From Chitinophagaceae bacterium (GTDB lineage: Bacteria > Bacteroidota > Bacteroidia > Chitinophagales > Chitinophagaceae): a stretch of DNA of 64,000 nucleotides. A program made the position numbers and the translations under genes. Within the stretch, counting starts at the first letter, position 1. Every line of letters starts with the position of its first letter. Under the pieces are notes generated by a model. That model did no database searches. It was given only the letters and a program-made list of their open reading frames with translations, and was not told the origin of the DNA. The stretch lies in contig JAIXOJ010000031.1 of NCBI GenBank assembly GCA_027486835.1, positions 23,937 through 87,936 on the forward strand, given 5' to 3'. Below are positions 21,836-64,000 of the stretch, in pieces.

Positions 21836-21854
21836 AATTATTGCTTTACGAAAA

Positions 21855-25305: not shown

Positions 25306-25520
25306 AAACATCAATCGAGGTTCAATAAACATCAATCAAGGTCTGATAGACATCAATCGAGGTCTGATAGACATCAATCAAGGTCTGATAGACATCAATC
25401 GAGGTTCGATAGACATCAATCAAGGTCTGATAGACATCAATCGAGGTCTGATAGACATCAATCGAAGTGCGATAGACATCAATCGAGGTGCGATAGACAT
25501 CAATCGAGGTCTGATAGACA
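25306..25520. repeat. Tandem array of ~10.5 copies of a 21-bp unit (agacatcaatcgaggtctgat, with cg/ca and ct/gc variants)
   Basis: Repeats read directly from the sequence, with no spacers between copies. The predicted ORF 25169..25528 is just the in-frame translation of the repeat. Confidence 0.9.
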
Positions 25521-25700: not shown

Positions 25701-26378
25701 ATGGAATTTTATAGTATCCCAGCAAGTGTATCACAATTTGACGTTTACCAAGAATCGCTTTATGATTTAGTTACCAAAAATGCCTCTGATTGGGGTATCC
25801 CCGCAGCCGTTGTGGCCAAATTAACCGCATTGCGCAACAAATGGGCACCAGCCTTCAAATTGCAAGCGGACGAATACACCGCTAGCAAGGCCAATAAAAT
25901 TACTCGGGATACTATAAGAAAGGAATATGAGACCGAGATTAAAAACATTATTGAACAATATTTACTCAACAAAAGCACCATTGCCGAAGATAAAAAGGGA
26001 ATGATTGGGATAAAAACCAAAAAAACACCTACTTCCACCAAGGGCGAATTAAAAGGATTTCCAGTTATTGAAGTTCGTATCAATGGTTCGTTGGCACATA
26101 GCATTGTTTTTCGCGATTCCATTGCTACTAAAAGCAAGGCGAAACCAAAGGGTGTTGCTTTTTGCGAATTGCGTTATAAAGTGATAGATACTGGCACGGC
26201 TGGGCCTATTAGTGCAGATGATTTTACAGGATATGAGCTTATTTCTTCTAGTGGTGATAATGTTCGCTTTCCAGAGACGTACCGCGGCAAAACCGCCCAC
26301 TACTTTGCTCGCTGGCGCAGAATAGATGGCTCAACAGGCTCTTGGAGTGCTTTTACAGATGGTGGAGTAATTAGTTAA
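25701..26378 (+). CDS. Hypothetical protein (225 aa), founder of a small paralog family
   Basis: Clean ORF 180 bp downstream of the 21-bp array. A frameshifted paralog fragment with the same downstream terminator sequence lies at 46140..46560 (minus). Confidence 0.55.
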   Translation: MEFYSIPASVSQFDVYQESLYDLVTKNASDWGIPAAVVAKLTALRNKWAPAFKLQADEYTASKANKITRDTIRKEYETEIKNIIEQYLLNKSTIAEDKKGMIGIKTKKTPTSTKGELKGFPVIEVRINGSLAHSIVFRDSIATKSKAKPKGVAFCELRYKVIDTGTAGPISADDFTGYELISSSGDNVRFPETYRGKTAHYFARWRRIDGSTGSWSAFTDGGVIS

Positions 26379-26401
26379 TTCCTGAATAGGTTATGATTAT
26401 T

Positions 26402-26446
26402 AAGCTCGAATGGACTACTACGTAAGTCTGTTCGAGCTTTTTTTAT
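26402..26446 (+). terminator. Rho-independent terminator (aagctcgaa...ttcgagctt + T7)
   Basis: Hairpin plus T-run 24 bp after the stop. The same motif is present after the pseudogene copy. Confidence 0.6.
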
Positions 26447-27522: not shown

Positions 27523-27604
27523 CATAATGTTAGCAACATACGTTATGCAACAGGAAAACTTTGGCCCTCCCGTACTATTTTCACTGTTTCACTTCTTTAA
27601 AAAA

Positions 27605-27715
27605 AGCCAGTTTCTAAATACTCGGTGGACAATTCCCCTCTCGAGGGGTGCCCAAAGGGCGGGGTGGCAATTCCGCACAAGTCATACAACAGGAAAACTT
27701 TGGCCGCCACAAACT
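27605..27715 (+). repeat. Structured ~100-bp repeat element, copy B (hairpins cccctc-tc-gagggg and gccc-aaa-gggc)
   Basis: Aligns with copy A. It is flanked by the direct repeat caacaggaaaactttggcc at 27549 and 27698. Confidence 0.6.
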
Positions 27716-27744: not shown

Positions 27745-27765
27745 AAAGGGTGCATAAAAGTTTTT
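27745..27765. repeat. Solo/partial terminal repeat of the MITE-like element (gggtgcataaaagtttttcgc)
   Basis: Matches the left terminal inverted repeat of the elements at 46989 and 63390. No right arm is present. Confidence 0.35.
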
Positions 27766-28096
27766 CGCTTTTTCTGCACAAAACTGCAATGCTGTTGATG
27801 TGTGATATATGCTAACTACCGGAAAAGAAAGTTAGATGCGCCAAATAAACAAAGTATAAAAATGTCTTGCAATCAATACCAGGCTAACATTCCAGTTCCC
27901 TCTCTTTTGGAGAGGGGTTGGAGTGAGGTTTAAATTAGGGGGGCGAAAAACGTTAATGCTCCCATCCATTTTCAGGTTTTCCCACTTTGAATCAGTAAAC
28001 TGTAGCAGGTGGTTTCAATATACTTTCTTGCTAAATAAAACCACCCACTTACCACTTACTAGTTTACTTTGCTCACTTATTCATATCTCTTTTATC

Positions 28097-29776: not shown

Positions 29777-31387
29777 GTGGATATTACCAGTTTAAATAAA
29801 GACAGGAAACGAAGAAAAGTGCCCAGCATCGATTTGAGCAATATCGGTTCTGGCAAAGTACAACCTCAAGCAAGAGAACTAGAAGAGGCTGTGTTGGGGG
29901 CAATAATGTTGGAGAAAGGTGCTTTTGATACGGTGAGCGAAATCTTAAAACCAGAATGTTTCTACGTACAGGCGCATGAACATATCTACCGGTGTATGAT
30001 GAGCTTGGAGCAAAAAAGCCAGCCCATAGATATACTTACGGTAGTAGAAGAGCTTCGTTTCAAAGAATTATTAGAGTCAATTGGAGGCCCTTATTTTGTT
30101 ACTAAACTCACCAATTCGGTGGTTAGTGCGGCCAATATTGATGCCCACGCTAGAATTGTGCTCCAAAAGTTTATCCAACGGGAGTTGATTAGAATTAGTG
30201 GTGAAATTATTGGCGAAGCCTATGAAGACAGTACCGATGTATTTGATTTGCTGAATACAACGGAAGAAAAGATTTTTAACGTAACCAAAAACTTCCTTAA
30301 ACAAGATTATAAGGAAATGGGTACTGCTTTAGCACAAGCAGTGATGCGTATTGATGATTTGCGTACCAAAACAGAAGATATTTCTGGGGTACCTAGTGGC
30401 TTTGCATCGCTAGATAGGGTAACATTTGGTTGGCAACCTACCGATTTGATTATCCTAGCAGCACGTCCTTCAGTGGGTAAAACGGCTTTTGCTTTAAACC
30501 TAGCACGCCATGCCGCATTAAACACCTCTAAGCCCACCGCAGTGGGGTTTTTTAGTCTGGAAATGAGTGCTGCGCAATTGGTGCAACGGATATTAAGTGC
30601 GGAAAGTGAAATTCCTTTGGAGAAAATTAGCCGGGGTAAAATGGAAGATTATGAATACCAACAATTGCATACCAAGGGTATCAAAAAGCTGGAATCAGCC
30701 CCCATATTCATCGACGATACGGCCTCTTTAAACATTTTCGAGTTCAGAGCCAAAGCCAGAAGACTGGTAAACAAGCACAACGTAGGCATCATTATGATTG
30801 ACTATTTACAGTTGATGAGTGGCAGTGCCGACAAAAACAGTAATCGGGAACAAGAGATTAGCACCATCTCTCGAAATCTGAAAGCTTTAGCAAAAGAGTT
30901 GAACATTCCCATTATTGCACTGAGCCAGTTGAGTCGTGCGGTTGAAACCAGAAAGGAGAGCAAGATGCCCCAGTTAAGCGATTTGAGGGAATCTGGTGCC
31001 ATTGAGCAAGATGCGGATATGGTAATGTTTATCTATAGACCTGAGTACTATGAAAACATGACGAATGAGCATGGAGAAAGTACCAAGGGCGAAACGCATA
31101 TTAGAATTGCCAAACACCGTAATGGCTCATTAGAGAATATTAGGCTACAAGCACATCTACACATCCAGCGTTTTGAAGATATTGATGATAACAACAACCG
31201 ACCAGGCGGTAGTAATAATTTAGGTGGAGGCAACTTCAAGCCCATACCCTCCGGGCCTTTGAGTCCATTGGGAGGTGCTCCTGCTGGTGCTGGAACAGCC
31301 AATGGCGGTGGTAAGTTCTTTGTTCAAGGAAGTAAAATGAACACAGGCGATTTTGATGCTGGCGCAGAATTAGATGCACCTTGGTAA
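29777..31387 (+). CDS. dnaB: Replicative DNA helicase DnaB with an unusual ~70-aa Gly-rich C-terminal tail
   Basis: DnaB N-domain (EEAVLGAIMLEKGAFD), Walker A ARPSVGKTAFALNLA, and motifs IIMIDYLQLM, SQLSRAVE, ESGAIEQDADMV. The 5' end is assigned to a GTG, so the start is uncertain. Confidence 0.85.
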   Translation: MDITSLNKDRKRRKVPSIDLSNIGSGKVQPQARELEEAVLGAIMLEKGAFDTVSEILKPECFYVQAHEHIYRCMMSLEQKSQPIDILTVVEELRFKELLESIGGPYFVTKLTNSVVSAANIDAHARIVLQKFIQRELIRISGEIIGEAYEDSTDVFDLLNTTEEKIFNVTKNFLKQDYKEMGTALAQAVMRIDDLRTKTEDISGVPSGFASLDRVTFGWQPTDLIILAARPSVGKTAFALNLARHAALNTSKPTAVGFFSLEMSAAQLVQRILSAESEIPLEKISRGKMEDYEYQQLHTKGIKKLESAPIFIDDTASLNIFEFRAKARRLVNKHNVGIIMIDYLQLMSGSADKNSNREQEISTISRNLKALAKELNIPIIALSQLSRAVETRKESKMPQLSDLRESGAIEQDADMVMFIYRPEYYENMTNEHGESTKGETHIRIAKHRNGSLENIRLQAHLHIQRFEDIDDNNNRPGGSNNLGGGNFKPIPSGPLSPLGGAPAGAGTANGGGKFFVQGSKMNTGDFDAGAELDAPW

Positions 31388-31451: not shown

Positions 31452-31548
31452 AGGGTGCATAAAAGTTTTTTTCATTACAGCTTTCACCAGATTGGTGGAG
31501 TTATGATGGAGGTTTAACTAATAACTCCAAAAACTTTTATGCATCATC
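31452..31548. repeat. Degenerate MITE-like element copy (gggtgcataaaagttttt ... aaaaacttttatgcatcatcc) with a different interior
   Basis: Terminal inverted repeats match the 46989 and 63390 elements with a few mismatches. Confidence 0.4.
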
Positions 31549-40250: not shown

Positions 40251-40658
40251 TGCACTAAGTGAAATGGTACTGCTTTGCCAAACTGTAGCGCCTGAATGAT
40301 GGGTGCGGTGTATTTGTAAAAAGGTGTTTGAAAAAAGAAAGGTAATGTAATTTAAACTGCTTCAGGTTCTTCCCCCCAGCCCCTCGCATAAGGTGAGGGG
40401 CATAGCGAACGACTTTTATGTACTCTTCCTCATTTAAAATGGGAGTGCTACTAGCCTTAATTTTTTCTTTTTAGCAGCAAGAACCATTCATGGAATTCAT
40501 CCATAATTCAGCGTTTGCCGAAAAAGTGTAGGATATATGTTATCGTATGTATAAAACCCTATTTTTACTGCACCCACTTTTAGAGAATGGGTAATGGGAG
40601 TGTTGGCTCATTAATGTATTGATTACACCTTTTTTAAAAATAAATTAATCATAAAACC

Positions 40659-43600
40659 GTGTTTAGCATGAAACAGAGAAAGCCACTAGTTTGGTTAGTA
40701 GGTATGTCGTTAGTTGTGTTTTTTTCAACTATTCATTTAAGCTTTGGCAAAGCTGTATTTGCCAACCATAAAGAGGATAGAATTACTACCCCTCCATCGA
40801 ACAAACAAGCAACTCATGCAGTAAATGAACTTGAGCGTAAGCAAAGAATCCCTATTAGCCCCACCGCTACCCCAACCATTAGTTCCTTTTCGCCCGCCAT
40901 TGCCTGCCCTGGCAGTACGGTGAATATTGTGGGTACTGATTTTACTGGGGCTACTGCTGTACGATTTGGGGGTGTTGCTGCGGCTTCTTTTGTTGTTAAT
41001 TCTGCCACGAGCATTTCGGCTGTTGTGGCTGCGGGGGGTGTCAATGGCGTGGTTACTGTCACTACCCCAAGCGGCACTGCTACTAGTGCCACCAGTTTTT
41101 CAGTGGGTAGCGGCACGGTGGCTTATGCCTATATGACCAACTATGCCGACAATAATGTGAGCATCGTTAATACATCCACAGGTGTTGTTAGTTCCACCCT
41201 TGCCGTGGGTGCAACGCCATCTGGTGTAGCGGTTAACCCAAGTGCTACACGCGTCTATATTGCCAATTCAGGCGATAATACCATTAGTGTTATCAATACA
41301 AGCACCAATACTGTATCTGCCACTATTACTGTTGGTACCCAACCAGTAGGCATAGTGGTAAGCCCAGATGGCAGCAAGTTATACGTGACCAATTTTGGAG
41401 AAAACACCGTTAGCGTTATAAATACTAGCACAAACACCGTAACTACAACTCTAACGGTGGGCAGTGGTCCTACCGCCATTGTTATAGCTCCAGATGGCAC
41501 CAAAGTGTATGTGGCCAATAGTTTTGCCAATACCGTTAGCGTCATCAATACTTCCAACAACACCGTTAGCACACCGATGGTATTTACTGCTTTCACTTAC
41601 CCTGCGGGGCTTAGTATCAACAGTACAGGTACCGTTTTGTATGTGGCCAATCAATTTAAGAATACGGTTAGCTTCATCAGCACTGCAAGCAATACCATTA
41701 CAAAAACCGTTGCTGTAGGCAAAAACCCTATAGGATTAACCCTAAGTTCAGACAATGCCACGCTTTATGTGGCCAACAATGGTGGTAATTCTGTGAGCGT
41801 GGTGAATACAACAACAGCAACAGCTACTGCTACGGTTAACGTAGGTAGTGCACCCTTCGGATTGAGCGTTACACCCGACGGCTCTAAAGTGTATGTGGCA
41901 AATAATGGAGGCAACACGGTTAGCGTTATTAATACGAGCAACAATACGGCTGGAACATCTATTACCGTTGGTGGGTCACCTTTTGGTTTTGGTAATTTTA
42001 TGGCTAGTGTTGTTACCCCTTGTTTACCCACTATCAGTTCATTTACCCCCACCACAGCAGCTTTAGGCACAACAGTAACCATTTCGGGTACTAATTTATC
42101 AGGAGCCACAGGGGTGAAGTTTGGAGGTGTGGCTGCCACTTCTTTTTCGGTAATTAACAGCACTACCATTACTGCGGTAGTGGGTAGTGGTGCTACTGGG
42201 GATGTAGCTGTTACTACTTCTGGCGGTACTGCTACTAAAAGCGGTTTTACTTTTTGTACTAACGTTACCCCATCTGTTACCATTTCTGCAAGTGCTGCTA
42301 CCATTTGCTCAGGGAGTAGCGTCACTTTTACCGCAGTACCCACAAACGGAGGTAGTAGCCCTAGCTATCAGTGGAAAAAATTCAACACCAATGTGGGTAC
42401 CAATAGTGCCACTTTTACTACTTCCACCTTGGCCAATGGTGATTCTATATTGTGTGTAATGACCGCTAACAATGCCTGCCAAACCACCCCTACGGCAACA
42501 AGCAAACTTATTGGTGTAAGTGTGTATGCCACACCCGCTTCGCCATTTATATCGGGTGGCACTTGCGTGGGCAGTACTTTACAGGTGACCCCATCTAACA
42601 ATCTATCGCAGATTGATTGGCGACTTAACGGAAACACCATAAGTTCTGTGACCAATTTCGGAAGCAGTGGCAACACGTTCGCTGGGGGTAATGGTAGTGG
42701 TAGTGGCGTTAGCCAATTGAATTTGCCTATTGGGGTAATGCTCGATAATGCAGGCAATGTATATGTGAGTGATGGCAGTAACAACCGTGTTGTAAAATGG
42801 GCACCTGGTGCTTCAACTGGGGTAGTGGTAGCTGGGGGCAATGGTGCAGGCAATGGCTTAAAGCAATTACAATTTCCCGAAGGCATTTATGTGGACGGAA
42901 GCAATAGCGTATATGTAGCCGATAATAATAATCACCGAGTTGTGAAATGGACTTCTGGTGCTTCGGCAGGCGTATTGGTGGCTGGTGGAAATGGCCAAGG
43001 CAGTGCCGCCAACCAATTAAATTATCCCGATGGTATTTATGTGGATGCCAATGCTACAATATACATTGCCGATGCCTTTAACCACCGCATTCAAAAATGG
43101 ACGGCTGGGGCAACCACAGGTGTTACGGTTGCAGGAACTGGCATCAGTGGTAGCGGAGCCAGCCAATTAAATTCACCCTTAGGCGTGTTTGTGGATGGAG
43201 TAGGTACGGTTTACATAGCCGATTTCAACAATCATAGAGTACAAAAATGGACGGCTGGTGCATCATCTGGTGTTACGGTAGCGGGAGGCAATGGCCAAGG
43301 TAGTGCGGCTAACCAATTGAACAATCCAACTAGTGTATATGCCGACGAAGTGGGCAATGTGTATGTATCTGATTATGGTAACCACCGTGTTCAAAAATGG
43401 ACAGTGGGAGCTACCACTGGCGTTACCGTTGCTGGGGGCAATGGCAATGGCATTACCGCCCTTCAATTATCTAACCCCAACGGTATTTATTTAGATGGAT
43501 CTGGTAACTTATATGTAGCCGATGGGGGCAATAACCGTGTACAAGGGTATGCCGCAGGAGCTATTAAAAGCAACAGCTACACTACCACCGCGGCCGGTAC

Positions 43601-45986
43601 TTACACCGCCAAAGTATATAGCACGGGCGGCTGTGCTGCCACTAGCGGTAGTGTGGTGGTGAATGCAACTGTTAAGCCATCTATATCTATATCATCTAGT
43701 GGTGCAAGTACTTGTGCGGGTACCACCGTATTCTTTACAGCAGTTCCTACTAATGGTGGTACAAGCCCTATCTACCAATGGAAAATCAATGGCGTGAATA
43801 TCGCTGGTGCTATGGCAAATACTTATTCAAGTAATAGTTTGCCTAACAACAGTTTAGTAAGTTGTGCACTCACCAGTAATGCTGCATGTGCCAGCCCCAC
43901 CGATACTACCAGCAATTTTATATTCATCAGTTACAATAGTACGCCCAATTTATGGACAGGCAACACTAGTACAGACTGGTCTGTAGCCAGCAATTGGTGT
44001 AGCAATACCGTACCCACCAGTGGAGCAGACATTAATATTCCTGTAGTATCCAATGGGCGATACCCTGCTTTAGCTAGCAACACTACTATTGGAAGTATTA
44101 ATCTGGCTGCTGGTGCTAGCCTACAACTCAATGGCAAAACCCTCACCATCAATGGAGCAGTTGCGGGTACGGGTGTTCTTAAAGGTTCTACTACATCGGG
44201 CTTAGTGGTCAACAGCAGTAGCACTTCTACTTTTTATTTCAACAAAACAGCTACCGACACATTGCTTGGCACACTCACCATTAGCGGCAGCGGTGGTGCT
44301 AAACTGGGTAATGGCTTGGGTATAACCAGTTTACTTTCCCTCAATGCGGGCAACCTTGACCTCAATGGTAATAACCTTACTTTAGAATCCACCTCCATTT
44401 CAGCCACTGCGGTGGTAGGGTCTGTAACAAATGGTGCAACTATTGCGGGTAAGGTAACGGTGGAACGTTTTATTCCCAAAGGCTTTAAAGCTTATCGGCA
44501 GTTGAGTGCGGGCGGGGTGTACAATGCTGGTTCATTCTTTAACAATTGGCAAGAAGGCGGCAACAAGCCTAGTGGCTATGGTACACATATTATTGGCAAC
44601 AAAAGCACTACGGCTGGCTTTAACACCACTACAGGACTAGACAACACCGTTAATGGCAAAAGGGGCTTGTTCATTTATACCAATGGTGGTTGGGATTCCA
44701 TCGGCAATACCAAAACCACCAATATCGATCCCTGTATGGGTTACCACATTGGTATGTTTGGCGACAGAACGGTGAACTTATACCAATCTAATTTTGATGC
44801 ATCAAGCGCTTTGGTTACGGCAACAACGATCCGTACAACGGGTCAATTATTAACTGGTTCTGTTACCTATACCAGCACTAGCACCACTGGTTCATTTGGT
44901 ACCAGTAGTGCTAAACTAAATACCGCCAATAATGCGGGCAGCTTGGTGGGCAATCCTTATGCTTGCGCCATCGATTGGCACAGTCTAACCAAAACGGGCT
45001 TGACCAATAGTTATTACTATTTCGACCCCACTTTCCTCATTAGCAATAGCTATCAAGTGTTTGTGTCTTATAACGCCACATCGGGTACCAACAGCAATCC
45101 GGGCAATTCAAAAATTAACCGTTACATACAACCTGGTCAGGCATTTTGGGTGGAGAATACGGCTAGCAGCGGCACCAGGCAGTTGGTGATTAGCGAAAGC
45201 AACAAAGTGACCAATCAAGCTTACACGGCAGTGTTTGCCTCCGAAAAGCGGGTGAACCGTTTGGCTATTACCCTTTGGAAAAACATTCCTAGTAAAGGCA
45301 ATACCAATATCGATGGTGCTGTGGCCGTGTTTGATGCACCATTTACTACTGAATTAGGTGATGAAGACACCAAAAAAATGCCCAACAGTCACGAAGACCT
45401 AGCCATCTTAGCGCAGCAAACTCCATTGGCCATCAATGGGCAACCCGCACCCAAAGCTGGAGATCGAATGCTGTTGCAATTGGACAAATTAGTGCCTGGT
45501 GTTTCGTATGAACTGCGTTTGGACGGTAGTGAATGGCAGTCTGAGGGCTTAACTGCTTATTTGGTAGATCAATACTTACAGAAAGAAACGCCTTTGGGCA
45601 GTGGTGTTTTGCACTACACTTTCACCAGCGCCTCCCCCTCCAATAATGAACAGCGGTTTAGCATAGTATTTAGCCAAAAACCCGCTTCGGCCAGCTATGC
45701 TACCACCCAAATTCTGCCCGCTGTTTACGCAGTTTACCCTAACCCAGTAGTAGGCAAAAAAGCAACCCTTAGTCTTACCAATGTACCAGCAGGAAAATAC
45801 ACCTTGGCTTGGTATAACGCTATGGGTCAGTGTATTACTAAACAACCAGTTTATCACGCCGCTGGTAGTGGCAACATAACTTACCCACTTTCTGCTATTA
45901 ATAGCAAAGGATTTTTTAACCTTCAATTGACTAACGACAAGGGCGAAGTGGTGTACACACAATCTGTATTAGTGGTTAGGGATTAG
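40659..45986 (+). CDS. Giant (1775 aa) T9SS-secreted surface protein (paralog 3). Order: IPT/TIG-like domains, YVTN beta-propeller repeats, NHL repeats, Cys-containing Ig-like modules, shared pre-CTD module, type-A CTD
   Basis: Signal peptide, YVANSGDNTISVINTSTNTV-type YVTN repeats, NHRVVKWT-type NHL repeats, VERFIPKGFKAYRQL...NNWQEGG module, and C-terminal VYPNPVVGKKATLSL...VLVVRD. Confidence 0.85.
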   Translation: MFSMKQRKPLVWLVGMSLVVFFSTIHLSFGKAVFANHKEDRITTPPSNKQATHAVNELERKQRIPISPTATPTISSFSPAIACPGSTVNIVGTDFTGATAVRFGGVAAASFVVNSATSISAVVAAGGVNGVVTVTTPSGTATSATSFSVGSGTVAYAYMTNYADNNVSIVNTSTGVVSSTLAVGATPSGVAVNPSATRVYIANSGDNTISVINTSTNTVSATITVGTQPVGIVVSPDGSKLYVTNFGENTVSVINTSTNTVTTTLTVGSGPTAIVIAPDGTKVYVANSFANTVSVINTSNNTVSTPMVFTAFTYPAGLSINSTGTVLYVANQFKNTVSFISTASNTITKTVAVGKNPIGLTLSSDNATLYVANNGGNSVSVVNTTTATATATVNVGSAPFGLSVTPDGSKVYVANNGGNTVSVINTSNNTAGTSITVGGSPFGFGNFMASVVTPCLPTISSFTPTTAALGTTVTISGTNLSGATGVKFGGVAATSFSVINSTTITAVVGSGATGDVAVTTSGGTATKSGFTFCTNVTPSVTISASAATICSGSSVTFTAVPTNGGSSPSYQWKKFNTNVGTNSATFTTSTLANGDSILCVMTANNACQTTPTATSKLIGVSVYATPASPFISGGTCVGSTLQVTPSNNLSQIDWRLNGNTISSVTNFGSSGNTFAGGNGSGSGVSQLNLPIGVMLDNAGNVYVSDGSNNRVVKWAPGASTGVVVAGGNGAGNGLKQLQFPEGIYVDGSNSVYVADNNNHRVVKWTSGASAGVLVAGGNGQGSAANQLNYPDGIYVDANATIYIADAFNHRIQKWTAGATTGVTVAGTGISGSGASQLNSPLGVFVDGVGTVYIADFNNHRVQKWTAGASSGVTVAGGNGQGSAANQLNNPTSVYADEVGNVYVSDYGNHRVQKWTVGATTGVTVAGGNGNGITALQLSNPNGIYLDGSGNLYVADGGNNRVQGYAAGAIKSNSYTTTAAGTYTAKVYSTGGCAATSGSVVVNATVKPSISISSSGASTCAGTTVFFTAVPTNGGTSPIYQWKINGVNIAGAMANTYSSNSLPNNSLVSCALTSNAACASPTDTTSNFIFISYNSTPNLWTGNTSTDWSVASNWCSNTVPTSGADINIPVVSNGRYPALASNTTIGSINLAAGASLQLNGKTLTINGAVAGTGVLKGSTTSGLVVNSSSTSTFYFNKTATDTLLGTLTISGSGGAKLGNGLGITSLLSLNAGNLDLNGNNLTLESTSISATAVVGSVTNGATIAGKVTVERFIPKGFKAYRQLSAGGVYNAGSFFNNWQEGGNKPSGYGTHIIGNKSTTAGFNTTTGLDNTVNGKRGLFIYTNGGWDSIGNTKTTNIDPCMGYHIGMFGDRTVNLYQSNFDASSALVTATTIRTTGQLLTGSVTYTSTSTTGSFGTSSAKLNTANNAGSLVGNPYACAIDWHSLTKTGLTNSYYYFDPTFLISNSYQVFVSYNATSGTNSNPGNSKINRYIQPGQAFWVENTASSGTRQLVISESNKVTNQAYTAVFASEKRVNRLAITLWKNIPSKGNTNIDGAVAVFDAPFTTELGDEDTKKMPNSHEDLAILAQQTPLAINGQPAPKAGDRMLLQLDKLVPGVSYELRLDGSEWQSEGLTAYLVDQYLQKETPLGSGVLHYTFTSASPSNNEQRFSIVFSQKPASASYATTQILPAVYAVYPNPVVGKKATLSLTNVPAGKYTLAWYNAMGQCITKQPVYHAAGSGNITYPLSAINSKGFFNLQLTNDKGEVVYTQSVLVVRD

Positions 45987-46139: not shown

Positions 46140-46560
46140 CCCTGATTATCCTGTACTCAAACAAAAAAAGCCAGACCAGACAACTTTAGTAGCCCATTCG
46201 AGCTTAAATAATAATAACCTATTCAGAGATTACAATTATTCCGCCATCTGTAAAAGTACTCTAAGGATCAGTGGAGTCATATTTTCTGAGGCAGCAAGCA
46301 AAATAGTGTGCGATTTTTAGGCGGTGCGTCTCAGGAAAGCGAATACTATCACCACTAGAAAAAATTAACTCATATCCTGTAAATTCTTCTGCACTAATTG
46401 GTCCAGCTGTGCCAGTATCTATTACATTATAACACAATTTACAAAAGCAACACCCTTTGGTTTCGCCTTACTTTTAGCAGCTATGGAATTGCGAAAAACA
46501 ATGCTGTGTGTCAATGAACCATTGATACGATCTTCAATTAATGGATGTCCTTTTTATTCG
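46140..46560 (-). pseudogene. Frameshifted, 5'-truncated paralog of the 225-aa gene at 25701..26378, including its downstream terminator sequence
   Basis: Minus-strand translation gives ...IEDRINGSLTHSIVFRNSIAAKSKAKPKGVAFVNCVIM* then, after a frameshift, DTGTAGPISAEEFTGYELIFSSGDSIRFPET... This matches ...IEVRINGSLAHSIVFRDSIATKSKAKPKGVAF...DTGTAGPISADDFTGYELISSSGDNVRFPET of the intact gene. Downstream it carries taagctcgaatgg(g/a)ctacta. Confidence 0.6.
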
Positions 46561-46579
46561 CTTCAAACCAGCCGCTATT

Positions 46580-46750
46580 TGACGGCAACCAAACGAAGCC
46601 TCCGCGAGCCTCTCGTCAACTGACGGCAGCCAAACGGAGCCTCCGCGAGCCTCTCGTCAACTGACGGCAACCAAACGGAGCCTCCGCGAGCCTCTCGTCA
46701 ACTGACGGCAATCAAACGGAGTCTCCGCGACCCTCTCGTCAACTGACGGC
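46580..46750. repeat. Tandem array of 4.2 copies of a 41-bp unit (tgacggcaaccaaacggagcctccgcgagcctctcgtcaac)
   Basis: Read directly from the sequence. It lies immediately 5' (on the coding strand) of the pseudogene. Confidence 0.9.
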
Positions 46751-46988: not shown

Positions 46989-47091
46989 TGGGGGTGCGTA
47001 AAAGTTTTTCGCTATGAAGCTTCGTTTTAACTTATACAGGGTTTCAAACCCTATATAAGTTTGCGAAAGGGGCGAAAAACTTTTACGCACC
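46989..47091. mobile_element. MITE-like element: 21-bp terminal inverted repeats gggtgcgtaaaagtttttcgc / gcgaaaaacttttacgcaccc around an ~60-bp structured core (gggtttcaaaccc hairpin)
   Basis: Perfect TIRs. A second full copy at 63390..63490 carries the same core in inverted orientation, with TIR positions co-varying (gcgt/acgc vs gcac/gtgc). Confidence 0.55.
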
Positions 47092-47207
47092 CAACCAGAT
47101 TGGCTTATTTCCCTTCTGGAAATATCTAGGACTAAAGCATACAAGATATAAATGGTACTAAGCACTCTCCGGACCATTGACACTTGTTATGAATAACCAA
47201 CAGAAAT

Positions 47208-49145
47208 CTATCTAGGTACTTCCAACTTATTGTTTTCTCGCTTTACGTCGGCCAATCGAAAGCTAGGGTCTATTTCTATTGATTTAATATCCTTCAAATT
47301 ACGAGAAATGCTAAGCGTATAGGTAGGATGCGTCCATTTCCATTCAGGTGCTATAACCCTTGGCAAGTTGTCTTCTTGCAGCTTATAGCCAAAGAGTAAA
47401 TCAAGTGGCACATAATACAATTCTTTGCTACCATCTTTATAACTGATTAACACATCCACAGGCATAGGCATTTTGCCAAGCCGTTTAAGGGTAATTTCGG
47501 TTTTATTGTTCACCAGTTCAATATTACCCACTGCATAATCAATGGTTTTGATACTATTAACCCAATATTCTTTGTACCACTGCAAATGCAAGCCACTTAC
47601 CTTTTCCGCCACTCGAATAAAGTCATTGGCATTGGGATGTTTAAATCGCCACTGGTTGTAATATTCATGTAAAATAACATTCCGTACACTGTCACCCACT
47701 ATGTAGCCCAACTGCGCCAAAAACACCGCACCCTTAGCATATGATGCCGCTGAATAACCAAAATTGGTGTTGAAATGATCAGCATGGGTAGATAGCGGTT
47801 CCTCATAAGGACTCGCTGCAAGATTAAAGTAGCCAGCATAGCTATCGGCCTGTTTAAGGGGTAAATCATCCTTTTCTTTAGCGTAAGTAGCGGCATTCGC
47901 TGCTTTAGTGGCTGCATTAACAAAGGGCGATTGGGTAGCCCAATTGGCATTGTAATAATCGGTTACTTCATTTTCGGCAAAAGAGGTAAATCCTTCATCC
48001 ATCCAAGCAAAAAGGCTTTCGTTAGTACCCAATAAATGCTGGTACCAATTGTGCATCCATTCATGGAAAACAGCCCCTAGCCCTGGCCCTCTTAGCAAAG
48101 TAGCCATGGCATATTCCATTCCACCATCACCACCTTGTATAAAGGAATATTGCGGATAAGGATATTTTCCATAATGGCTTTCTATAAAGGGTAATACCTT
48201 TTCTGCGGCATACAAAATATTGCTCCAAGCACTGTCTGTACGTTTATCGCCCGCTTTGTAAACCACATGCAAGGTTACACCACGGGTTTTCTTAGATAGG
48301 TGTTTAAAATTGGGATCGGCAGCCCAAACAAAATCATGGATATTTTCCCCTTTAAAGTTCCAAGTTATTGTTTTTCCAGTAGCGGCAGGCACTTTTACAC
48401 CCGCATCTTCATAGCCAAAACCGATGGAATTCGCATTTTGTAAAACGCCCGTACCAGCAATTAGGTAGTTTTTATCGATGGTTATTTTTACATCATAATC
48501 ACCCCACACGCCATAAAACTCACGAGCTATATAAGGGTTAGCATTCCACCCTTGGTAATCGTATTCCACCATTTTAGGATACCATTGACTCATACTAAAC
48601 CGCACCCCCTCGGCATTATCTCTACCGCTTCGGCGGATTTGCAAAGGAACTTGCGCTTGAAAAGCCAACTCAAGATTGGTTTTGCTTCTAGGCAAAATGG
48701 GTTTACTTAGTCTTACTTCCAGTATCGTTTCATGGTTAACCAAGGTTTGAGCAACCCCGTTTATTTTAATGCTATTTACCCGCTGGTACCCAATTTGGTC
48801 TTCGGTAAGTTTACTGATTCGGTCGCGAACCCTACCATCCCAGTCAAGTCGTGGTTCTCCGTTTCTGCTAGTGCCTAGTACGGTTTTACCTAGTTCTTGG
48901 CTTCTCACATCCATGCTGCTATTAGGCTGGAATGCATTCCAATACAAATGAAAAAACAACTTGTCCAATGTATCGGGCGAATTATTGATATACTCAATTA
49001 CTTCAGTACCCGAAAATTGATTGGCATCTACATCCACTTGCACAGCAATATTGTATTTTATACGCTGCTGCCAACGGTCAGACTGTGCAACAACTGATTG
49101 GCACAGTAAGCAACAAATAACTACTCTAAATATCCAATTTAACAT
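47208..49145 (-). CDS. Secreted M1-family zinc metallopeptidase (aminopeptidase N-like)
   Basis: Signal peptide, HEWMH (HExxH) and downstream WMDEGF zinc ligand. 645 aa. Confidence 0.75.
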   Translation of the reverse strand: MLNWIFRVVICCLLCQSVVAQSDRWQQRIKYNIAVQVDVDANQFSGTEVIEYINNSPDTLDKLFFHLYWNAFQPNSSMDVRSQELGKTVLGTSRNGEPRLDWDGRVRDRISKLTEDQIGYQRVNSIKINGVAQTLVNHETILEVRLSKPILPRSKTNLELAFQAQVPLQIRRSGRDNAEGVRFSMSQWYPKMVEYDYQGWNANPYIAREFYGVWGDYDVKITIDKNYLIAGTGVLQNANSIGFGYEDAGVKVPAATGKTITWNFKGENIHDFVWAADPNFKHLSKKTRGVTLHVVYKAGDKRTDSAWSNILYAAEKVLPFIESHYGKYPYPQYSFIQGGDGGMEYAMATLLRGPGLGAVFHEWMHNWYQHLLGTNESLFAWMDEGFTSFAENEVTDYYNANWATQSPFVNAATKAANAATYAKEKDDLPLKQADSYAGYFNLAASPYEEPLSTHADHFNTNFGYSAASYAKGAVFLAQLGYIVGDSVRNVILHEYYNQWRFKHPNANDFIRVAEKVSGLHLQWYKEYWVNSIKTIDYAVGNIELVNNKTEITLKRLGKMPMPVDVLISYKDGSKELYYVPLDLLFGYKLQEDNLPRVIAPEWKWTHPTYTLSISRNLKDIKSIEIDPSFRLADVKRENNKLEVPR

Positions 49146-55377: not shown

Positions 55378-58300
55378 TTACCTTATAAATAATGATGCTG
55401 AACAAACCTTAGATGACTCATTGTTGAGTACAATAGTATAAAAACCTGATGATATAGACGCATTTAATTCAATTGTATATTTGCCAGCACCTCCTAGATG
55501 TTTAATGGATTGACGAATCTCTACCTTGCCTAAAGCATTGTAAACAACTACTTGGTAGTTCCCTTTGGGTAATGCCTCGCAGAAAAGCTGTATTTTATTA
55601 TCCACTACAGGATTGGGAAATACTCGGATACTTGCTTTACCGTCATTCTGGGTATTGGCTATGATTGGGTTAAACTTAGCATTTGCAAATTGGATACTAA
55701 AGCGTTCTGTACTGCCTTCGTAATGACCAAACCTATACTCCAATCCTTCCGTTTCTATCTTGACTTGTTTACCCAACAAAGCATCTACCAAAAAGGCTTC
55801 TTGGCCTTTACTGCTAAATTCAGTAGCATCAATATGTAATTGATAGGAGGTATTAGGTACTAAATTCCAAAGCTTTAATGGTAAAATATCACCAGCATTC
55901 GGCATGGGCAAACCATCGATAGAAATATCTTGATTACCCTCTACAATTGCGAGGTTCTCTTTTGAATTCTGCATTTTTTTAGCATCCTCGGCTCCATATG
56001 CTTTGGCGTATTCTTGGTCAAACACGGCCACCGCTCCATCTATGTTTTTACTACCGATGCCTTCCAGATTTTTCCATAGACTGATAGCCAATCTATTAAT
56101 TGGTTTTGAAGTTTTATACACTGCCGTAAATGATTGGTTGGTTACTTTGTTGCTCTCTGCAATTACTAGTTGCCTTGTACTGTTGCTAGCTGTATTCTCC
56201 ACCCAAAATGCTTGTGCAGGTTGTATGTAACGGTTGATTTTAGATAAGGTGGGGTTACTATTTGTTCCAGTACTTGCATTGTAGGATACAAAGACTTGGT
56301 AACTATTACTCACCAAAAAAGAAGGGTCAAAATAATAATAGTTGTTGGTTAATCCTGTTTTGGTTACTGCGTGCCAGTCGATGGCACAAGCATAAGGATT
56401 CGCAATAAAACTACCCGCATTATTAACCGTTGAAAGTTTGGCTGAACTTGTACCAAAGCCTCCACCAGTTGTGTTAGTCGTTCCAAAAGTAATTGTCCCT
56501 GTTACCAATTGTCCTGTTGTTCTGATGGTAGTTGCGTTGGTCATGCTACTAGAAGTGTCAAATTTATTTTGGTAGAGGTTTACATTTCTGTCGCCAAACA
56601 TGGCTACATGATAACCAATACAGGGGTCAATATTGGTGGTTTTTGTATTGGCTATGGAATCCCAAGCATTGTTTGTGTAAATAAACAATCCCCTGTTTCC
56701 GTTGGTGGTGTTATCCAGTCCTGTAGTAGCATTAAAGCCAGGGCTTGTACTTTTATTTCCTATAATGTACGTACCATATCCCATTGGCCTACTTCCTTTT
56801 TCCTGCCAATTATTAAAGAATGAACCAGCATTATACACGCCTCCTGCACCTAACTGGCGATAGGCTTTAAAGCCTTTAGGAATATAGCGTTCTACAGTTA
56901 CACTGCCTGTAATAGTTGCACCATTAGTTATTGGGCCAACAGCTGCAGTGGCTGAGATAGAAGTTGATTTTAGGGTTAAAAAATTTCCGTTAAGGTTGAG
57001 GTTACCAGCGTTTAGTGAGAGCAATCCAGTGATTCCCACACCCGTTCCCAATTTGGCACCGCCTGTTCCGCTAATGGTTAAAGCGTTTAATAAAGAATCG
57101 TTCGCTACTTTGTTGAAGTACACAATAGACGTACTGCTACTGTTCACCACCAAACTGGATGTTGATGATCCTTTCAATACCCCCGTACCCGACACCAAAC
57201 CATTGATGGTAAGGGTTTTTCCGTTGAGGCTCAGACTTGTTCCTGTAGGCAAAGAAAGGTTGCTAATTGCCGTATTTGCAGCTAACACGGGATAACGCCC
57301 TGTTGCCACAACAGGAATATTGATGTTGCTGCCTGCAAGCGGTACAGTATTGCTACACCAGTTGCCACCAACTGACCAATCCGTGCTAATAGCTCCTGTC
57401 CAAGTATTGGCAACACCAGTTACTGTAATGGTGATGGCATTGCTGGTTACTTGGGTTGGTACTGCACAAGTGGCGTTACTGTTTAATACGGCAGTTACTT
57501 TATCATTATTGGCCAATGAGTTACTACTATAGGTGTTGCCAGTAGCCCCAACGGAACTACCATTTACATACCACAAAGGAGCGGCAGTTCCTGCATTAGC
57601 TGTATTGGCAGTGAACGAAACACTAGTACCTGCGCAAATGGATGTTTTATTAGCCACAATAGAAATGGAAGGCGTGAGGTTAGCGTTCACAGTCATCTTT
57701 ACGGAGTTACTTGTGGCAGAAGTGGTAGTAGCACAGGTGACATTGCTTGTTAAAACAACTGATATTAAGTCATTATTTGCCAAGGTTGATCTAGTGAAAG
57801 TGGGTGCGGTTGCCCCAGAGATATTTATACCGTTAATTTTCCATTGGTAGGAAGGGCTTCCTCCTCCGTTAGTAATAACGGAAGAAAACGTAACACTACT
57901 TCCAGAACAAATATTACTAGCACTAGCATTAATACTAATGGTAGGGGTAACTTTTGGGTTAACGGTCACTTTGATGCTATTGCTCGTTTTCGTAGGAGGA
58001 ATGGCGCATACCGCATTACTAGTAATTGTACAAGTTATAGCATCGTTGTTAACTAGACTGCTTACGCTATAAGTAGCCGATGTGGCTCCAGTGATGGGAA
58101 CACCATTTTTGTTCCATTGGTAAGAAGGACTTGTTCCGCCATTGGTAATAGACGCAGAGAAAGTAATAGAAGTACCGGTACATATAGTGGTGGCTGTTGC
58201 GTTGATAGCAATAGTTGGCGTTACTGGGATACAAAGTACAAATCCAGCTAAACTTGCAGTGCCCGTTGGCCCTACCACTGACACCGTTCCACTTGCACCA

Positions 58301-59079
58301 CTAGCCACCACTGCTGAAATAGTGCTATCATTTAGTACAGTAAATGAGGAAGCGGCCACCCCACCGAAACTAACACTACTGGCTCCAGTAAACGAACTAC
58401 CACTTATGGTAATGGTAGATCCCGCTGGGGCTACCGTTGGTGTAAAACTGGTAAGTGTAGGCACACTGCGAACAAAGGCAATACTACCTATAAAACCTCT
58501 TGGATACCTAAAGGGCATAAAAGGTAAATTATCTCCTGACCATCCTACGTTTCCACCAGTAATAATATTAACATTGCCAGCGGTTGCGGTATACACAGTT
58601 TCATCAAACAAACCTTCATAACTGAGGCCTTGCCCGCTACCGTCGTCGGCATTAACACAAAAGCCATAGGTTCGTCCTGGTGGAACAACCACATATAAAG
58701 CATCGGTTAGCATATTTACCCCCGCAGTGCCAGCAATAGTACCAGTACCCGCACTTACCCATCCATTTAAGCCATCACCAACATCGCCCTGAGTCCAAGT
58801 ATCACTGGAAGACAGAACGGCAGTGGGATTATACAAAACCGTCCAATTATGATTGCCTGCATTGAGTAGGTGGCAGCTTACCGTGTTTACAGTGATAGGA
58901 AATACGTTGTTATTTTGAACATTGAAAATGATAGAGTTAAATGCATAATTATTGAAAGAATGCGATGTGGTAACTGTTGTTTGCGCATTCAAGCCGTTGG
59001 TAAGGCAAACAAGCAGCACTAATATTCCTATCTTGGTGAAAGCGTATAGGTTTTTCATTTTTGAAACCAAGTAATCCAT
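55378..59079 (-). CDS. Giant (1233 aa) T9SS-secreted surface protein (paralog 4): IPT/TIG-like domain, four Cys-containing Ig-like modules, shared pre-CTD module, type-A CTD
   Basis: Signal peptide. Four ~75-aa modules with C..G(S/T).V(T/S)F.A....GG(T/S)(S/A)P.YQW(K/N). About 75% identity to paralog 3 over the VERYIPKGFKAYRQL...NNWQE region. C-terminal VFPNPVVDNKIQLF...SLFIR. Confidence 0.85.
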   Translation of the reverse strand: MDYLVSKMKNLYAFTKIGILVLLVCLTNGLNAQTTVTTSHSFNNYAFNSIIFNVQNNNVFPITVNTVSCHLLNAGNHNWTVLYNPTAVLSSSDTWTQGDVGDGLNGWVSAGTGTIAGTAGVNMLTDALYVVVPPGRTYGFCVNADDGSGQGLSYEGLFDETVYTATAGNVNIITGGNVGWSGDNLPFMPFRYPRGFIGSIAFVRSVPTLTSFTPTVAPAGSTITISGSSFTGASSVSFGGVAASSFTVLNDSTISAVVASGASGTVSVVGPTGTASLAGFVLCIPVTPTIAINATATTICTGTSITFSASITNGGTSPSYQWNKNGVPITGATSATYSVSSLVNNDAITCTITSNAVCAIPPTKTSNSIKVTVNPKVTPTISINASASNICSGSSVTFSSVITNGGGSPSYQWKINGINISGATAPTFTRSTLANNDLISVVLTSNVTCATTTSATSNSVKMTVNANLTPSISIVANKTSICAGTSVSFTANTANAGTAAPLWYVNGSSVGATGNTYSSNSLANNDKVTAVLNSNATCAVPTQVTSNAITITVTGVANTWTGAISTDWSVGGNWCSNTVPLAGSNINIPVVATGRYPVLAANTAISNLSLPTGTSLSLNGKTLTINGLVSGTGVLKGSSTSSLVVNSSSTSIVYFNKVANDSLLNALTISGTGGAKLGTGVGITGLLSLNAGNLNLNGNFLTLKSTSISATAAVGPITNGATITGSVTVERYIPKGFKAYRQLGAGGVYNAGSFFNNWQEKGSRPMGYGTYIIGNKSTSPGFNATTGLDNTTNGNRGLFIYTNNAWDSIANTKTTNIDPCIGYHVAMFGDRNVNLYQNKFDTSSSMTNATTIRTTGQLVTGTITFGTTNTTGGGFGTSSAKLSTVNNAGSFIANPYACAIDWHAVTKTGLTNNYYYFDPSFLVSNSYQVFVSYNASTGTNSNPTLSKINRYIQPAQAFWVENTASNSTRQLVIAESNKVTNQSFTAVYKTSKPINRLAISLWKNLEGIGSKNIDGAVAVFDQEYAKAYGAEDAKKMQNSKENLAIVEGNQDISIDGLPMPNAGDILPLKLWNLVPNTSYQLHIDATEFSSKGQEAFLVDALLGKQVKIETEGLEYRFGHYEGSTERFSIQFANAKFNPIIANTQNDGKASIRVFPNPVVDNKIQLFCEALPKGNYQVVVYNALGKVEIRQSIKHLGGAGKYTIELNASISSGFYTIVLNNESSKVCSASLFIR

Positions 59080-61276: not shown

Positions 61277-63211
61277 TTATTCAACATTTGACGGATTCTC
61301 TTGGAGCGGCGGTAGTTTGGAATCCATCGCTTTTTTTACATCCATTAGTTCCATCAACTTAAGCCCTAGCAATCCATCCATAGACGAACCTTGTCCATTT
61401 GCACCACCAATCAATACATCTGGTATCAATTTTATCCTGCCTTTAGATAGCTCTTCTGTTATTTTATAGCGGGTAAAGTTCTCGCCTCCCAATGCCTTTA
61501 CAGCCAGCTCATAAGCCTCGGCGGTTGATTTACCAACGGCTAATATTTTACCAGCCTCGGCATTACCAGTAAGACTAATTTTTTCTGCTTCTGCTGCTGC
61601 TCTAAGTTTAATGGCTTCCGATTCTGCAACTGCGCGTGCCTTGGTAGCTTCTGCTTCGGCAAACGCCCTCATTTTAGTAGCTTCTGCTTCGGCACCTACG
61701 GCTAGTTTTACGCCTGCTGCGTCACCTTCTGATTTTTTTACGGTAGCACTTGCTGTTTTCTCCGCTATTTCCACACTTTGTTGTGCTTTTACGATATCCT
61801 TTTGCATATCAGCGATAGCGGTTTCTTTTTCCATTCCTTGCCTAGTTTCTTGCGCACTTTTTTGAGTGTCGTAAGTTACTTTTTGCTCCTCGGCTAGCTT
61901 ACGATCGGTAAGTGTTTTCATCAATGATTCGGGTGGTACAATGTCGCCAATTAAAGTATCTACTGCATTTACATTGTATTCATCCAGCACACGTTTAATG
62001 TGCTCTTTCGCAGATTCCTGCCTTTCTTTTCTTGAACTGAGGAATGAAATAACATCGCTGTCTTGTGCGGAGTTTCTGAAATAGTTGCCAATAGTCGGTT
62101 CCAATACCTGAGAAACCAGATTTACCATATTGCCAAAGCGGGCAATCACTTTGGGGGCTTCTGTGGTGGGTACGTGGATAATTTGTGCTACATCTAAATT
62201 AAAAGGAAAACCATCCCTAGAGCGCACGGTAATGGTGGACAGATTCTTATCTAAGTTGTGTGCTTCACTTCTTGCGCTAGCCCAGTTCAGCACTAAATTG
62301 GTGGTTGGTACCAACTCCACTTTCATGATGTACTTGTTAATAGGGTATTTACCAGGGCCTAATGGCTCTAGCCATACGCCTTTGAACCCTTTTTCAACAA
62401 TGTTGCCATGCTTAAACTCTGCGCCAGTAGTGTCTCTGCCTTCTTGACCAATGTAGGAAATTACCACGCCTACATATCCAATTGGAATCTCTGTCATGGG
62501 TGTTTCTTCCAATTGTACGGCCCAAGGATTGATATTATAGGAACCGGCCAATATTACTTGTGGCTGCAAACCCCTGTTGCCCCCATTTTTTATGAATTTA
62601 TCAAAATCTTGAAAGTTGTTATGACCTTCCACCAATTTACCTGCAATTTGCCCTTCATCAATGGGTTGACCGTCCAGTGTTGTAACGATGCCTACCCTAC
62701 TTTCCTGTATCCGAATCATTTCGGTGGTGGTCACTTGAAAAAGCTGGGTGTTAATACGATAAGAACCAGCCGTGATGTAATCGGTTTGTCGCCCTCTTTG
62801 TCCACCATTAACTAAAAACTTTTCTGCATCTTGAAAATTATCGCACTCCACACTTCTGGCCAAAATATTACCCGTAGGTATTTCTGAACCATCCTTTGCC
62901 ATGATAAGGCCAATTTGTCCTTCGGGAATAATGGTAAAATGTTCCATTGTTACCCCATATTGCCAGAACCATTTACCAAAGTACAAGCCAGGGGCGAGGG
63001 TTTTGGCTTGGAAGCCAGCTTCGCCTTTTGTGGCTATGATGCGTCCATCTGGAAGTGCTTTTTCATCACCAAATAGCACGAACTTTTTGGTTACCAACCC
63101 AATCTTGTCCTCTGGTACGATCACCATTCCAAATAGAAAACGAAGAATTAATTTGTAAGAAGCTATCGCAGCTATGAGGAGAAATAGCCACCAAAAATTT
63201 AAAATTTGCAT
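61277..63211 (-). CDS. Flotillin-like SPFH/band-7 membrane protein
   Basis: N-terminal TM helix, SPFH domain, and a long Ala/Glu-rich coiled coil (AEAEATKMRAFAEAEATKARAVAESEAIKLRAAAEAE). 644 aa. Confidence 0.75.
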   Translation of the reverse strand: MQILNFWWLFLLIAAIASYKLILRFLFGMVIVPEDKIGLVTKKFVLFGDEKALPDGRIIATKGEAGFQAKTLAPGLYFGKWFWQYGVTMEHFTIIPEGQIGLIMAKDGSEIPTGNILARSVECDNFQDAEKFLVNGGQRGRQTDYITAGSYRINTQLFQVTTTEMIRIQESRVGIVTTLDGQPIDEGQIAGKLVEGHNNFQDFDKFIKNGGNRGLQPQVILAGSYNINPWAVQLEETPMTEIPIGYVGVVISYIGQEGRDTTGAEFKHGNIVEKGFKGVWLEPLGPGKYPINKYIMKVELVPTTNLVLNWASARSEAHNLDKNLSTITVRSRDGFPFNLDVAQIIHVPTTEAPKVIARFGNMVNLVSQVLEPTIGNYFRNSAQDSDVISFLSSRKERQESAKEHIKRVLDEYNVNAVDTLIGDIVPPESLMKTLTDRKLAEEQKVTYDTQKSAQETRQGMEKETAIADMQKDIVKAQQSVEIAEKTASATVKKSEGDAAGVKLAVGAEAEATKMRAFAEAEATKARAVAESEAIKLRAAAEAEKISLTGNAEAGKILAVGKSTAEAYELAVKALGGENFTRYKITEELSKGRIKLIPDVLIGGANGQGSSMDGLLGLKLMELMDVKKAMDSKLPPLQENPSNVE

Positions 63212-63389: not shown

Positions 63390-63490
63390 GGGTGCACAAA
63401 AGTTTTTCGCCGCCATCGCAAACTTTTAAAGGTTTTCAAACCCTATAAAAGTTAAAACGAAGCTTCAAAGCGAAAAACTTTTGTGCACCC
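63390..63490. mobile_element. MITE-like element, second full copy (gggtgcacaaaagtttttcgc ... gcgaaaaacttttgtgcaccc), inverted core relative to the 46989 copy
   Basis: Perfect 21-bp TIRs. The interior ggttttcaaaccct...aagttaaaacgaagcttc is the reverse complement of the 46989-copy interior. Confidence 0.55.
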
Positions 63491-63730
63491 CTTTCTTTGC
63501 CCAGAGTGCTTGTATTGTTTATTGTATCCACTAAAAAATGTGTTGCTTAATTTTAAATAGTTAAGACAATCTGTTTGCTCGAGAATTATTTCGTGTCAAC
63601 AACTGAAGTTTAGCCTAAGAAATATGTAATTATTCTGTAGATGGCGGTAATATAAAACTCATTTTTTGCAAAATCAATTTACAATTAAATTAATTGTTTA
63701 GGCTTCTTTGGTTATTTCTCTAAGATAATT

Positions 63731-64000
63731 ATATCAGCGAAGGCGAGGAATATATCAGCGAAGGCGAGGAATATGTCAGCGAAGGCGAAGAATATGTCAG
63801 CGAAGGCGAAGAATATGTCAGCGAAGGCGAAGAATATATCAGCGAAGGTGAGGAATATATCAGCGAAGGCGGGGAATATATCAGCGAAGGTGAAGGATAT
63901 ATCAGCGAAGGTGAGGAATGTATCAGCGAAGGTGAGGAATATATCAGCGAAGGTGAGGAATATATCAGCGAAGGTGAAGAATATATCAGTGAAGGTAAGG
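63731..64000. repeat. Tandem array of at least 13 copies of a 21-bp unit (atatcagcgaaggcgaggaat, with variants) running to the window edge
   Basis: Read directly from the sequence. It lies 240 bp downstream of the MITE-like copy. Confidence 0.9.

Follow-up and report, generated by a model that had tools for sequence, protein, structure and literature searches.

A short inverted-repeat element of freshwater Chitinophagaceae: a probable MITE family and its ISKra4/ISLre2-like partner insertion sequence

The short repeat analyzed in this work is very probably a MITE, that is, a non-coding and non-autonomous DNA transposon, the ends of which match those of an ISKra4/ISLre2-like insertion sequence (IS) of freshwater Chitinophagaceae. 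Direct support for this conclusion is provided by the ends common to MITE and IS, by the 8-bp target-site duplications (TSDs) detected at the level of the family, by the homology of the transposase and by the intergenic location of the copies; we infer that the partner transposase mobilizes the MITEs in trans. The first-pass annotation of the window, by which we mean the whole analyzed stretch of 64 kb, had proposed a MITE-like element, and both the TSDs of the family and the finding of a cognate IS with the same ends bear out this proposal.

Four dispersed copies, referred to here as A, B, C and D, were found within the window, in agreement with the earlier estimate of at least four. Copy A (46992..47092, + strand) is intact and 101 bp long, with terminal inverted repeats (TIRs) at 46992..47012 and 47072..47092, both reading GGGTGCGTAAAAGTTTTTCGC and pairing at 21/21 positions; they enclose a core of 59 bp, inside which a 33-bp central palindrome occupies 47029..47061. 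Copy B (63390..63490, − strand) is likewise intact and of 101 bp, with TIRs at 63390..63410 and 63470..63490, both reading GGGTGCACAAAAGTTTTTCGC and again pairing at 21/21 positions, and with the central palindrome at 63421..63453. The earlier description of both as full copies with perfect TIRs holds, and the position of B was given correctly; A had been placed at 46989..47091, which is corrected by the coordinates above. The two copies are reverse complements of each other over 108 nt at 85%. When B is flipped, it differs from A at 14 of the 101 positions, 10 of which fall in the 59-bp core (core identity 83%). The hairpin reported previously for the core, GGGTTTCAAACCC, lies at the center of the 33-bp palindrome in both A and B.

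The remaining copies, C and D, represent insertions of greater age that have decayed. Copy C (31453..31546, + strand) is 94 bp long, its arms carry 2 and 4 mismatches relative to the consensus, and its core is unrelated to the cores of A and B. A degenerate copy overlapping the 5′ end of the DUF4271 ORF had been expected at 31452..31548, and this is where copy C was found, with the ATG of the ORF in its right arm. Copy D (27748..27963, + strand) is a TIR-bounded element of 216 bp, the left arm of which (27748..27768) is perfect. This arm had been taken for a solo one at position 27745; it is indeed present, but it is accompanied by a diverged right arm at 27943..27963, which matches at 18 of 21 positions. 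A possible fifth relic, heavily decayed, is located at 40301..40425 (+ strand), where a right arm, GCGAACGACTTTTATGTACTC, with 4 mismatches is preceded, about 105 bp upstream, by a stretch beginning with GGGTGCGG; the evidence that it belongs to the family is slight, and we do not lean on it. When the window was searched with the arm pattern and up to 3 mismatches were allowed, 7 matches were obtained against 0.01 expected by chance. No ORF of at least 80 aa is present inside copies A, B, C and D (101, 101, 94 and 216 bp, respectively).

All four copies are placed between genes. Copy A lies between convergent genes, 116 bp past the stop codon of the M1 peptidase gene (47208..49145, − strand), and a distance of 179 bp separates copy B from the start of the SPFH/Band-7 gene (61277..63211, − strand), upstream of which it is situated. 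Copy C separates dnaB (29777..31387) from the DUF4271 gene, and copy D is flanked by a GDSL lipase gene and an ORF for a GT4 glycosyltransferase. In the DUF4271 ORF as mechanically called, the ATG (31539..31541) falls inside the right TIR of copy C (31526..31546; cttttATGca), and the Pfam domain begins only at residue 195. The true start of this ORF is therefore probably situated downstream of the called ATG, unless the MITE supplies the start codon. A tblastn search of the 64-kb window revealed no homolog of the transposase. On the basis of the M1 peptidase, the closest named relative of the source organism is Parasediminibacterium sp. JCM 36343 (73% identity). No orthologous empty site was found 3′ of the M1 peptidase gene, where copy A resides: the closest relatives share 73-74% aa identity, have other neighbors at this place, and synteny is broken.

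Outside the window, the same ends were encountered repeatedly. Contigs representing one genome per species were scanned with a loose pattern (16 specified bases), so that the matches listed are mostly due to chance; among these listed matches, Chitinophagaceae MAGs, Parasediminibacterium sp. JCM 36343 and Niabella were enriched. When JGI metagenomes were searched for the 21-nt consensus, 26 contigs from lake metagenomes were obtained, and viral contigs scanned for the element ends gave no match. Across these loci the consensus TIR, GGGTGCATAAAAGTTTTTCGC(T), common to more than 30 elements, is near-invariant, while the interiors are highly variable. The GGGTGCATAAAAGTTTTTCGC ends bound elements of 90-104 bp, a few non-coding elements of 346-969 bp, and insertion sequences of 1278-1282 bp. 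At least three unrelated types of core, of approximately 44-62 bp, occur in the short elements. The central palindrome of the A and B cores, containing TATAGGGTTYRAAACCCTATA, was found also in L120 and L075, and copies A and B are members of the subfamily defined by this core palindrome. Several copies were present within single MAGs, both relative orientations are common among the copies of other genomes, and all 29 copies examined are intergenic (29/29), adjoining the 5′ ends of genes more often than the 3′ ends. A 688-bp 'long element' in L097 turned out to be two adjacent MITEs. The origin of the cores by simple internal deletion of the IS was also considered and is not supported, as no likeness to the subterminal sequence of the IS was seen when they were compared by eye.

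Some relatives have a different kind of interior. In five TIR-bounded elements with perfect 8-bp TSDs (L123 12896..13334, L130 48..494, L122 1811..2029, L127 652..1620 and L058 2306..2879) the interior is almost entirely a tandem array, for example of a 41-mer repeated 7.9-9.9 times, a 42-mer repeated 5.5 times or an 11-mer repeated 8.9 times. Such array-filled elements are mobile elements with variable-number tandem repeats as cargo.

The target-site duplications, recommended by the first-pass annotation as a check, were found outside the window but not at its own copies. For 32 TIR-bounded elements outside the window, the 8-mers flanking both ends were compared, and the right 8-mer displaced by 9-59 nt served as a control (1581 comparisons). 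The flanks were identical at 8/8 positions in 10 of the 32 elements, at 7/8 in 2 and at 6/8 in 4; the displaced controls gave 8/8 in none of the 1581 comparisons, 7/8 in 0.5% and 6/8 in 1.3%. The duplicated 8-mers are AT-rich and show no evident consensus, and a single duplication of 9 bp was also noted. None of the window copies has a clear TSD, the agreement of the flanks being 0/8 for A, 2/8 for B, 5/8 for C (GTCACTTA and TCCACTTC) and 2/8 for D. Approximately half of the elements outside the window are also devoid of a TSD, and assembly chimeras across repeats are a likely cause of this; L136 and L138, for instance, have a common left flank and different right flanks. An inversion between A and B was considered as a cause of the missing TSDs in the window and rejected, as the flanks, compared by eye, are not reverse complements (0/8 and 4/8).

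The cognate full-length transposase with matching TIRs, which the first-pass annotation had suggested looking for, is encoded outside the window by ISs of 1278-1282 bp with the same TIR of 21-22 bp. The same perfect TIRs bound positions 104..1381 of L124 (1278 bp) and 183..1461 of L114 (1279 bp), both of which are metagenome contigs, and between them lies a pair of overlapping ORFs, the smaller of 66-70 aa and the larger of 303-345 aa. The large ORF (ORF B) finds its best profile match in the NCBIfam model ISKra4 (NF033572; E 6e-54, 184 bits), followed by ISLre2 (E 3e-29), and Pfam UPF0236 passes as well; its intact relative of 395 aa, P0002, matches NF033572 with E 4e-48 and 164.5 bits. As predicted from these profiles, the partner transposase is an ISKra4/ISLre2-like (prokaryotic Mutator-like) DDE transposase, with both scores against the ISKra4 model, 184 and 164.5 bits, lying below the curated NCBIfam cut-off of 205 bits.

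P0002, with 80% transposase identity, resides in an IS of 1282 bp with an identical 22-bp TIR (L136-L140), and the IS copy in L138 is flanked by the TSD TTTGAATT. Relatives whose transposases share 64% and 51% identity measure 1252-1256 bp and keep the terminal octamer GGGTGCAT, differing further in; the one at 51% identity, in L142, has the TSD TTAAATAT. The octamer is invariant in all autonomous relatives seen, and the inverted repeats of these ISs are 21-24 bp long and end with CCC. A database search returned more than 1200 homologous transposases, mostly on contigs of 1.2-1.5 kb, and such short contigs are as expected for collapsed repeats. The few homologs that bear a name are annotated as 'UPF0236 family transposase-like protein' and come from Chitinophagaceae or Ferruginibacter. 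In the NCBI MAGs GCA_947372715.1 and GCA_947447855.1 the IS is found at contig ends.

The transposase gene contains a position-conserved run of A residues approximately 240 nt into the IS, which comprises nine residues (A9) in L124, L114, L111 and L142, eight (A8) in L141 and ten (A10) in L136 and L138. The length of this run sets the structure of the coding region: A10 gives one intact ORF of 395 aa, and two ORFs are present in L124, L114, L111, L141 and L142. The A9 forms in L124, L114 and L111 have their second ORF in the +1 (or −2) frame. Judged from the reading frames, homopolymer or transcriptional slippage would fit this pattern better than −1 ribosomal frameshifting, and the variation in the length of the run suggests that either transcriptional slippage or phase variation may operate.

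Features of this kind have been described previously. Elements of the p-MULT type were reported to have inverted repeats of 18-39 bp with a terminal C and direct repeats of 8 or 9 bp, and those of p-MULT 4 were found in Bacteroidetes (PMC3942029, Guerillot et al. 2014). In the ISMich2 group of p-MULT 4 the transposase is encoded in two ORFs, for which a −1 frameshift was proposed (PMC3942029). In the entry for Acetivibrio cellulolyticus CD2 of the supplementary table to the same paper (PMC3942029), the end of the element begins with GGGTGCATTTAATTTCC and thus has the same octamer. Judging by this entry, the octamer seems to be shared beyond the IS group described here, and appears common across Mutator-like bacterial elements.

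The following course of events may be proposed. The ends of 21-22 bp would be the binding and cleavage sites of the DDE transposase encoded elsewhere by the 1.28-kb IS, and the enzyme would act in trans on any DNA provided with them. Such an activity would account for ends that are conserved across genera and yet enclose cores of about 60 bp belonging to several unrelated subfamilies. Insertion into an AT-rich intergenic target would duplicate 8 bp, rarely 9, and by analogy with IS256, ISLre2 and TnGBS it might proceed in a copy-out-paste-in manner, via a circular intermediate. The opposite orientations of A and B would follow from the lack of a fixed orientation of insertion. Each of these two copies has one base of the octamer GGGTGCAT changed, so that recognition by the transposase may have been lost; A and B are probably old copies, immobile at present, and they may no longer be recognized by the enzyme.

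How the arms of A and B came to change deserves a separate discussion. The first-pass annotation had pointed to purine/pyrimidine differences between the arms of the two copies that remain complementary within each copy, and this is precisely what we see: A7 is replaced by G on both ends of A, T8 is replaced by C on both ends of B, and neither copy has a change confined to one arm. The 28 other family elements carry 33 one-arm changes and 1 mirrored change, from which A and B differ (Fisher P=0.005). A third mirrored change is a transversion within the central palindrome, at pair 43:65 (A:T in copy A, T:A in copy B). As positions 7-8 form part of the invariant octamer GGGTGCAT, the agreement of the two ends is unlikely to be due to recognition by the transposase.

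One explanation would be that A and B have been exapted, i.e., that selection preserves each of them as a long hairpin by means of compensatory substitutions, and that this hairpin works either in RNA, as a stabilizing or terminating 3′ structure or as a small RNA, or in DNA, as a cruciform or a protein-binding site. The perfect pairing of the arms (21/21) in copies whose cores are only 83% identical, the mirrored changes in the arms and at pair 43:65, and the changes on both sides of five pairs in the alignment of the 4-sequence subfamily would fit such a possibility. So would the predicted folds of A and B, which are very stable (−44 to −57 kcal/mol) and on both strands far better than those of shuffled sequences (z from −7.8 to −11.7), and the fact that it is the conserved octamer that was hit, which makes pressure from transposase recognition unlikely as the cause. 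Nevertheless, only two copies and three events are involved, and three other differences between A and B at paired positions are uncompensated. In a sister subfamily of 12 copies there is no compensated TIR pair, several pairs are broken, and the covariation term equals +0.47. The gene context of the two copies differs, with A 3′ of a gene and B 5′ of a gene. Neither A nor B is followed by a U-tract or a terminator-like tail, and no Rfam 15 family was matched in the window at the gathering score; the sub-threshold matches are only look-alikes of miRNA hairpins, with 17-25 bits against thresholds of 63-249 bits. Taking these points together, we regard exaptation of this kind as decidedly unlikely.

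The same pattern can also be produced without any function, by quasipalindrome template switching, in which one arm of an imperfect inverted repeat serves as the template for the nascent strand, so that its sequence is transferred to the other arm (PMC7202029). This process also accounts for the transversion, a change that lacks a wobble intermediate. Because the sister subfamily contains no compensated TIR pairs and three differences between A and B are uncompensated, we favor template switching over selection for the hairpin as the source of the mirrored changes, bearing in mind that three events cannot decide. That A and B are domesticated hairpins with pairing kept by selection, and that they exemplify a MITE of Bacteroidota exapted as a structured regulatory element at the RNA or DNA level, is unlikely; this reading rests on the three mirrored doubles, on the stems of 21 bp that remain perfect despite 17% core divergence, and on the loss of the octamer and of the TSDs. 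In a milder version, A and B may be a natural record of hairpin-templated arm-to-arm conversion in bacterial MITEs. In either case the mirrored arms are a small natural example that could help to separate hairpin-templated mutation from selection for structure.

Another reading would see the repeat as a REP-like family of palindromes or terminators, located at gene ends and spread by a route that does not involve a DDE enzyme, such as a RAYT-type enzyme or recombination. REP and BIME repeats are imperfect palindromes of 20-40 bp, lacking TSDs and associated with RAYT enzymes of the Y1 (IS200/IS605-like) type. The family described here resembles them in being composed of short, intergenic and strongly hairpin-forming repeats, and the copies in the window are without TSDs. 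On the other hand, its units are of 101 bp with TIRs of 21 bp, unlike the 20-40-bp REP units; its 8-bp TSDs are highly significant across the family, its partners are of the DDE type, and a DDE-transposase IS carries exactly the same ends. No RAYT gene adjoins the window copies. The first-pass annotation had named copies sitting always at gene ends as terminators as the case that would speak for a REP-like family, and this case was not seen: gene starts are more frequent neighbors of the copies than gene ends, and A and B lack terminator-like tails. The REP-like reading is thus largely refuted, and we consider it highly improbable.

The earlier note of an orientation-flipped core stands insofar as A and B are reverse complements, but it is not the core alone that is flipped: the whole element is inserted the opposite way, and since the arms are identical, this looks the same and requires no special mechanism. 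An invertible DNA switch, in which a site-specific recombinase would flip the core between the inverted repeats, could be read from the different orientations of the A and B cores between arms that read the same, but it is barely credible, as insertion of the whole element in either orientation gives the same picture when the arms are perfect inverted repeats, either orientation is frequently seen in other genomes, A and B occupy separate loci and are not two states of one, and no recombinase gene adjoins the window copies.

The vicinity of tandem arrays was also considered. Both full copies had been said to lie about 240 bp from such an array, and the distances are indeed 242 bp for A (array at 46580..46750) and 240 bp for B (array at 63730..64000, continuing beyond the window). 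Elements were close to an array in 11 cases, which does not significantly exceed the 8.2±2.1 expected if intergenic positions are drawn at random from the same loci (P=0.14), and the spacers of 240 bp next to A and B show no relationship to each other (local score 11; shuffles gave 11.9±2.0). For these reasons the equal distances are a coincidence, and a composite unit consisting of array, spacer and MITE was rejected.

Several other repeats were noted in the course of this work. Intergenic tandem arrays with periods of 14, 21, 41 and 42 bp and unrelated units are unusually common in these Chitinophagaceae genomes; those of the window are at 25303..25520, 46580..46750 and 63730..64000. An inverted duplication of approximately 400 bp (26044..26444 vs 46163..46561, 80-89% identity) relates the 3′ part of a 225-aa ORF (25701..26378), for which there is no Pfam match, to a copy without an ORF, located upstream of A in a gap of 1.2 kb, and a tandem array is found no farther than about 0.5 kb from either copy of this duplication. 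Small repeats of a second family are GC-rich palindromes, e.g., ccctctcttttggagaggggttggagtgagg and cccctcgcataaggtgagggg, and are represented at 27601..27709 and 21851..21959, which resemble each other, as well as at 27895..27935 and 40376..40403. A palindromic unit of this small GC-rich kind is contained in the interior of the 216-bp copy D, and a similar motif occurs in the core of a Niabella MITE. Finally, an inverted similarity between 43945..45283 and 56069..57410 (72-74% over about 1.2 kb) joins the 3′ part of a 1775-aa ORF (40659..45986, + strand) and a 1233-aa ORF (55378..59079, − strand), which suggests that these two putative giant repeat-rich proteins have paralogous C-terminal regions.

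The results account for an intergenic repeat of frequent occurrence, which can lead gene calling astray, as in the case of the ORF at 31539 with its ATG inside a TIR, and which can break assemblies, as indicated by the ISs at contig ends. By published description, the partner IS resembles the ISMich2 group of the ISKra4 family (PMC3942029) in its best profile, which is ISKra4, in inverted repeats ending with C, in direct repeats of 8 bp (one of 9 bp) and, in L124, L114, L111, L141 and L142, in a transposase encoded in two ORFs split at a conserved site; it departs from that group in the +1/−2 frame found in L124, L114 and L111, compared with the reported −1, in the existence of intact A10 forms, and in profile scores below the NCBIfam cut-off. 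In the literature searched we found no MITE described from the ISKra4 group or from Chitinophagaceae. With this repeat, the Mutator-like ISKra4/ISLre2 group of Chitinophagaceae gains a MITE family together with its autonomous partner, the kind of element being ordinary.

Among bacterial MITEs, those mobilized in trans by a resident IS include the Correia elements of Neisseria, RUP of Streptococcus pneumoniae (with IS630-Spn1) and Nezha of cyanobacteria. The family described here is similar to them in that its members are non-coding, about 100 bp long and equipped with long TIRs that are the same as in an autonomous IS, in the TSD of fixed length seen at the family level, in the many intergenic copies present in both orientations, and in the strong potential to form hairpins. 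It is unlike them in that its partner is an ISKra4/ISLre2-like element of the Mutator type from Chitinophagaceae, in that several unrelated cores share one TIR, and in that the interior of some of its relatives is made up of a tandem array.
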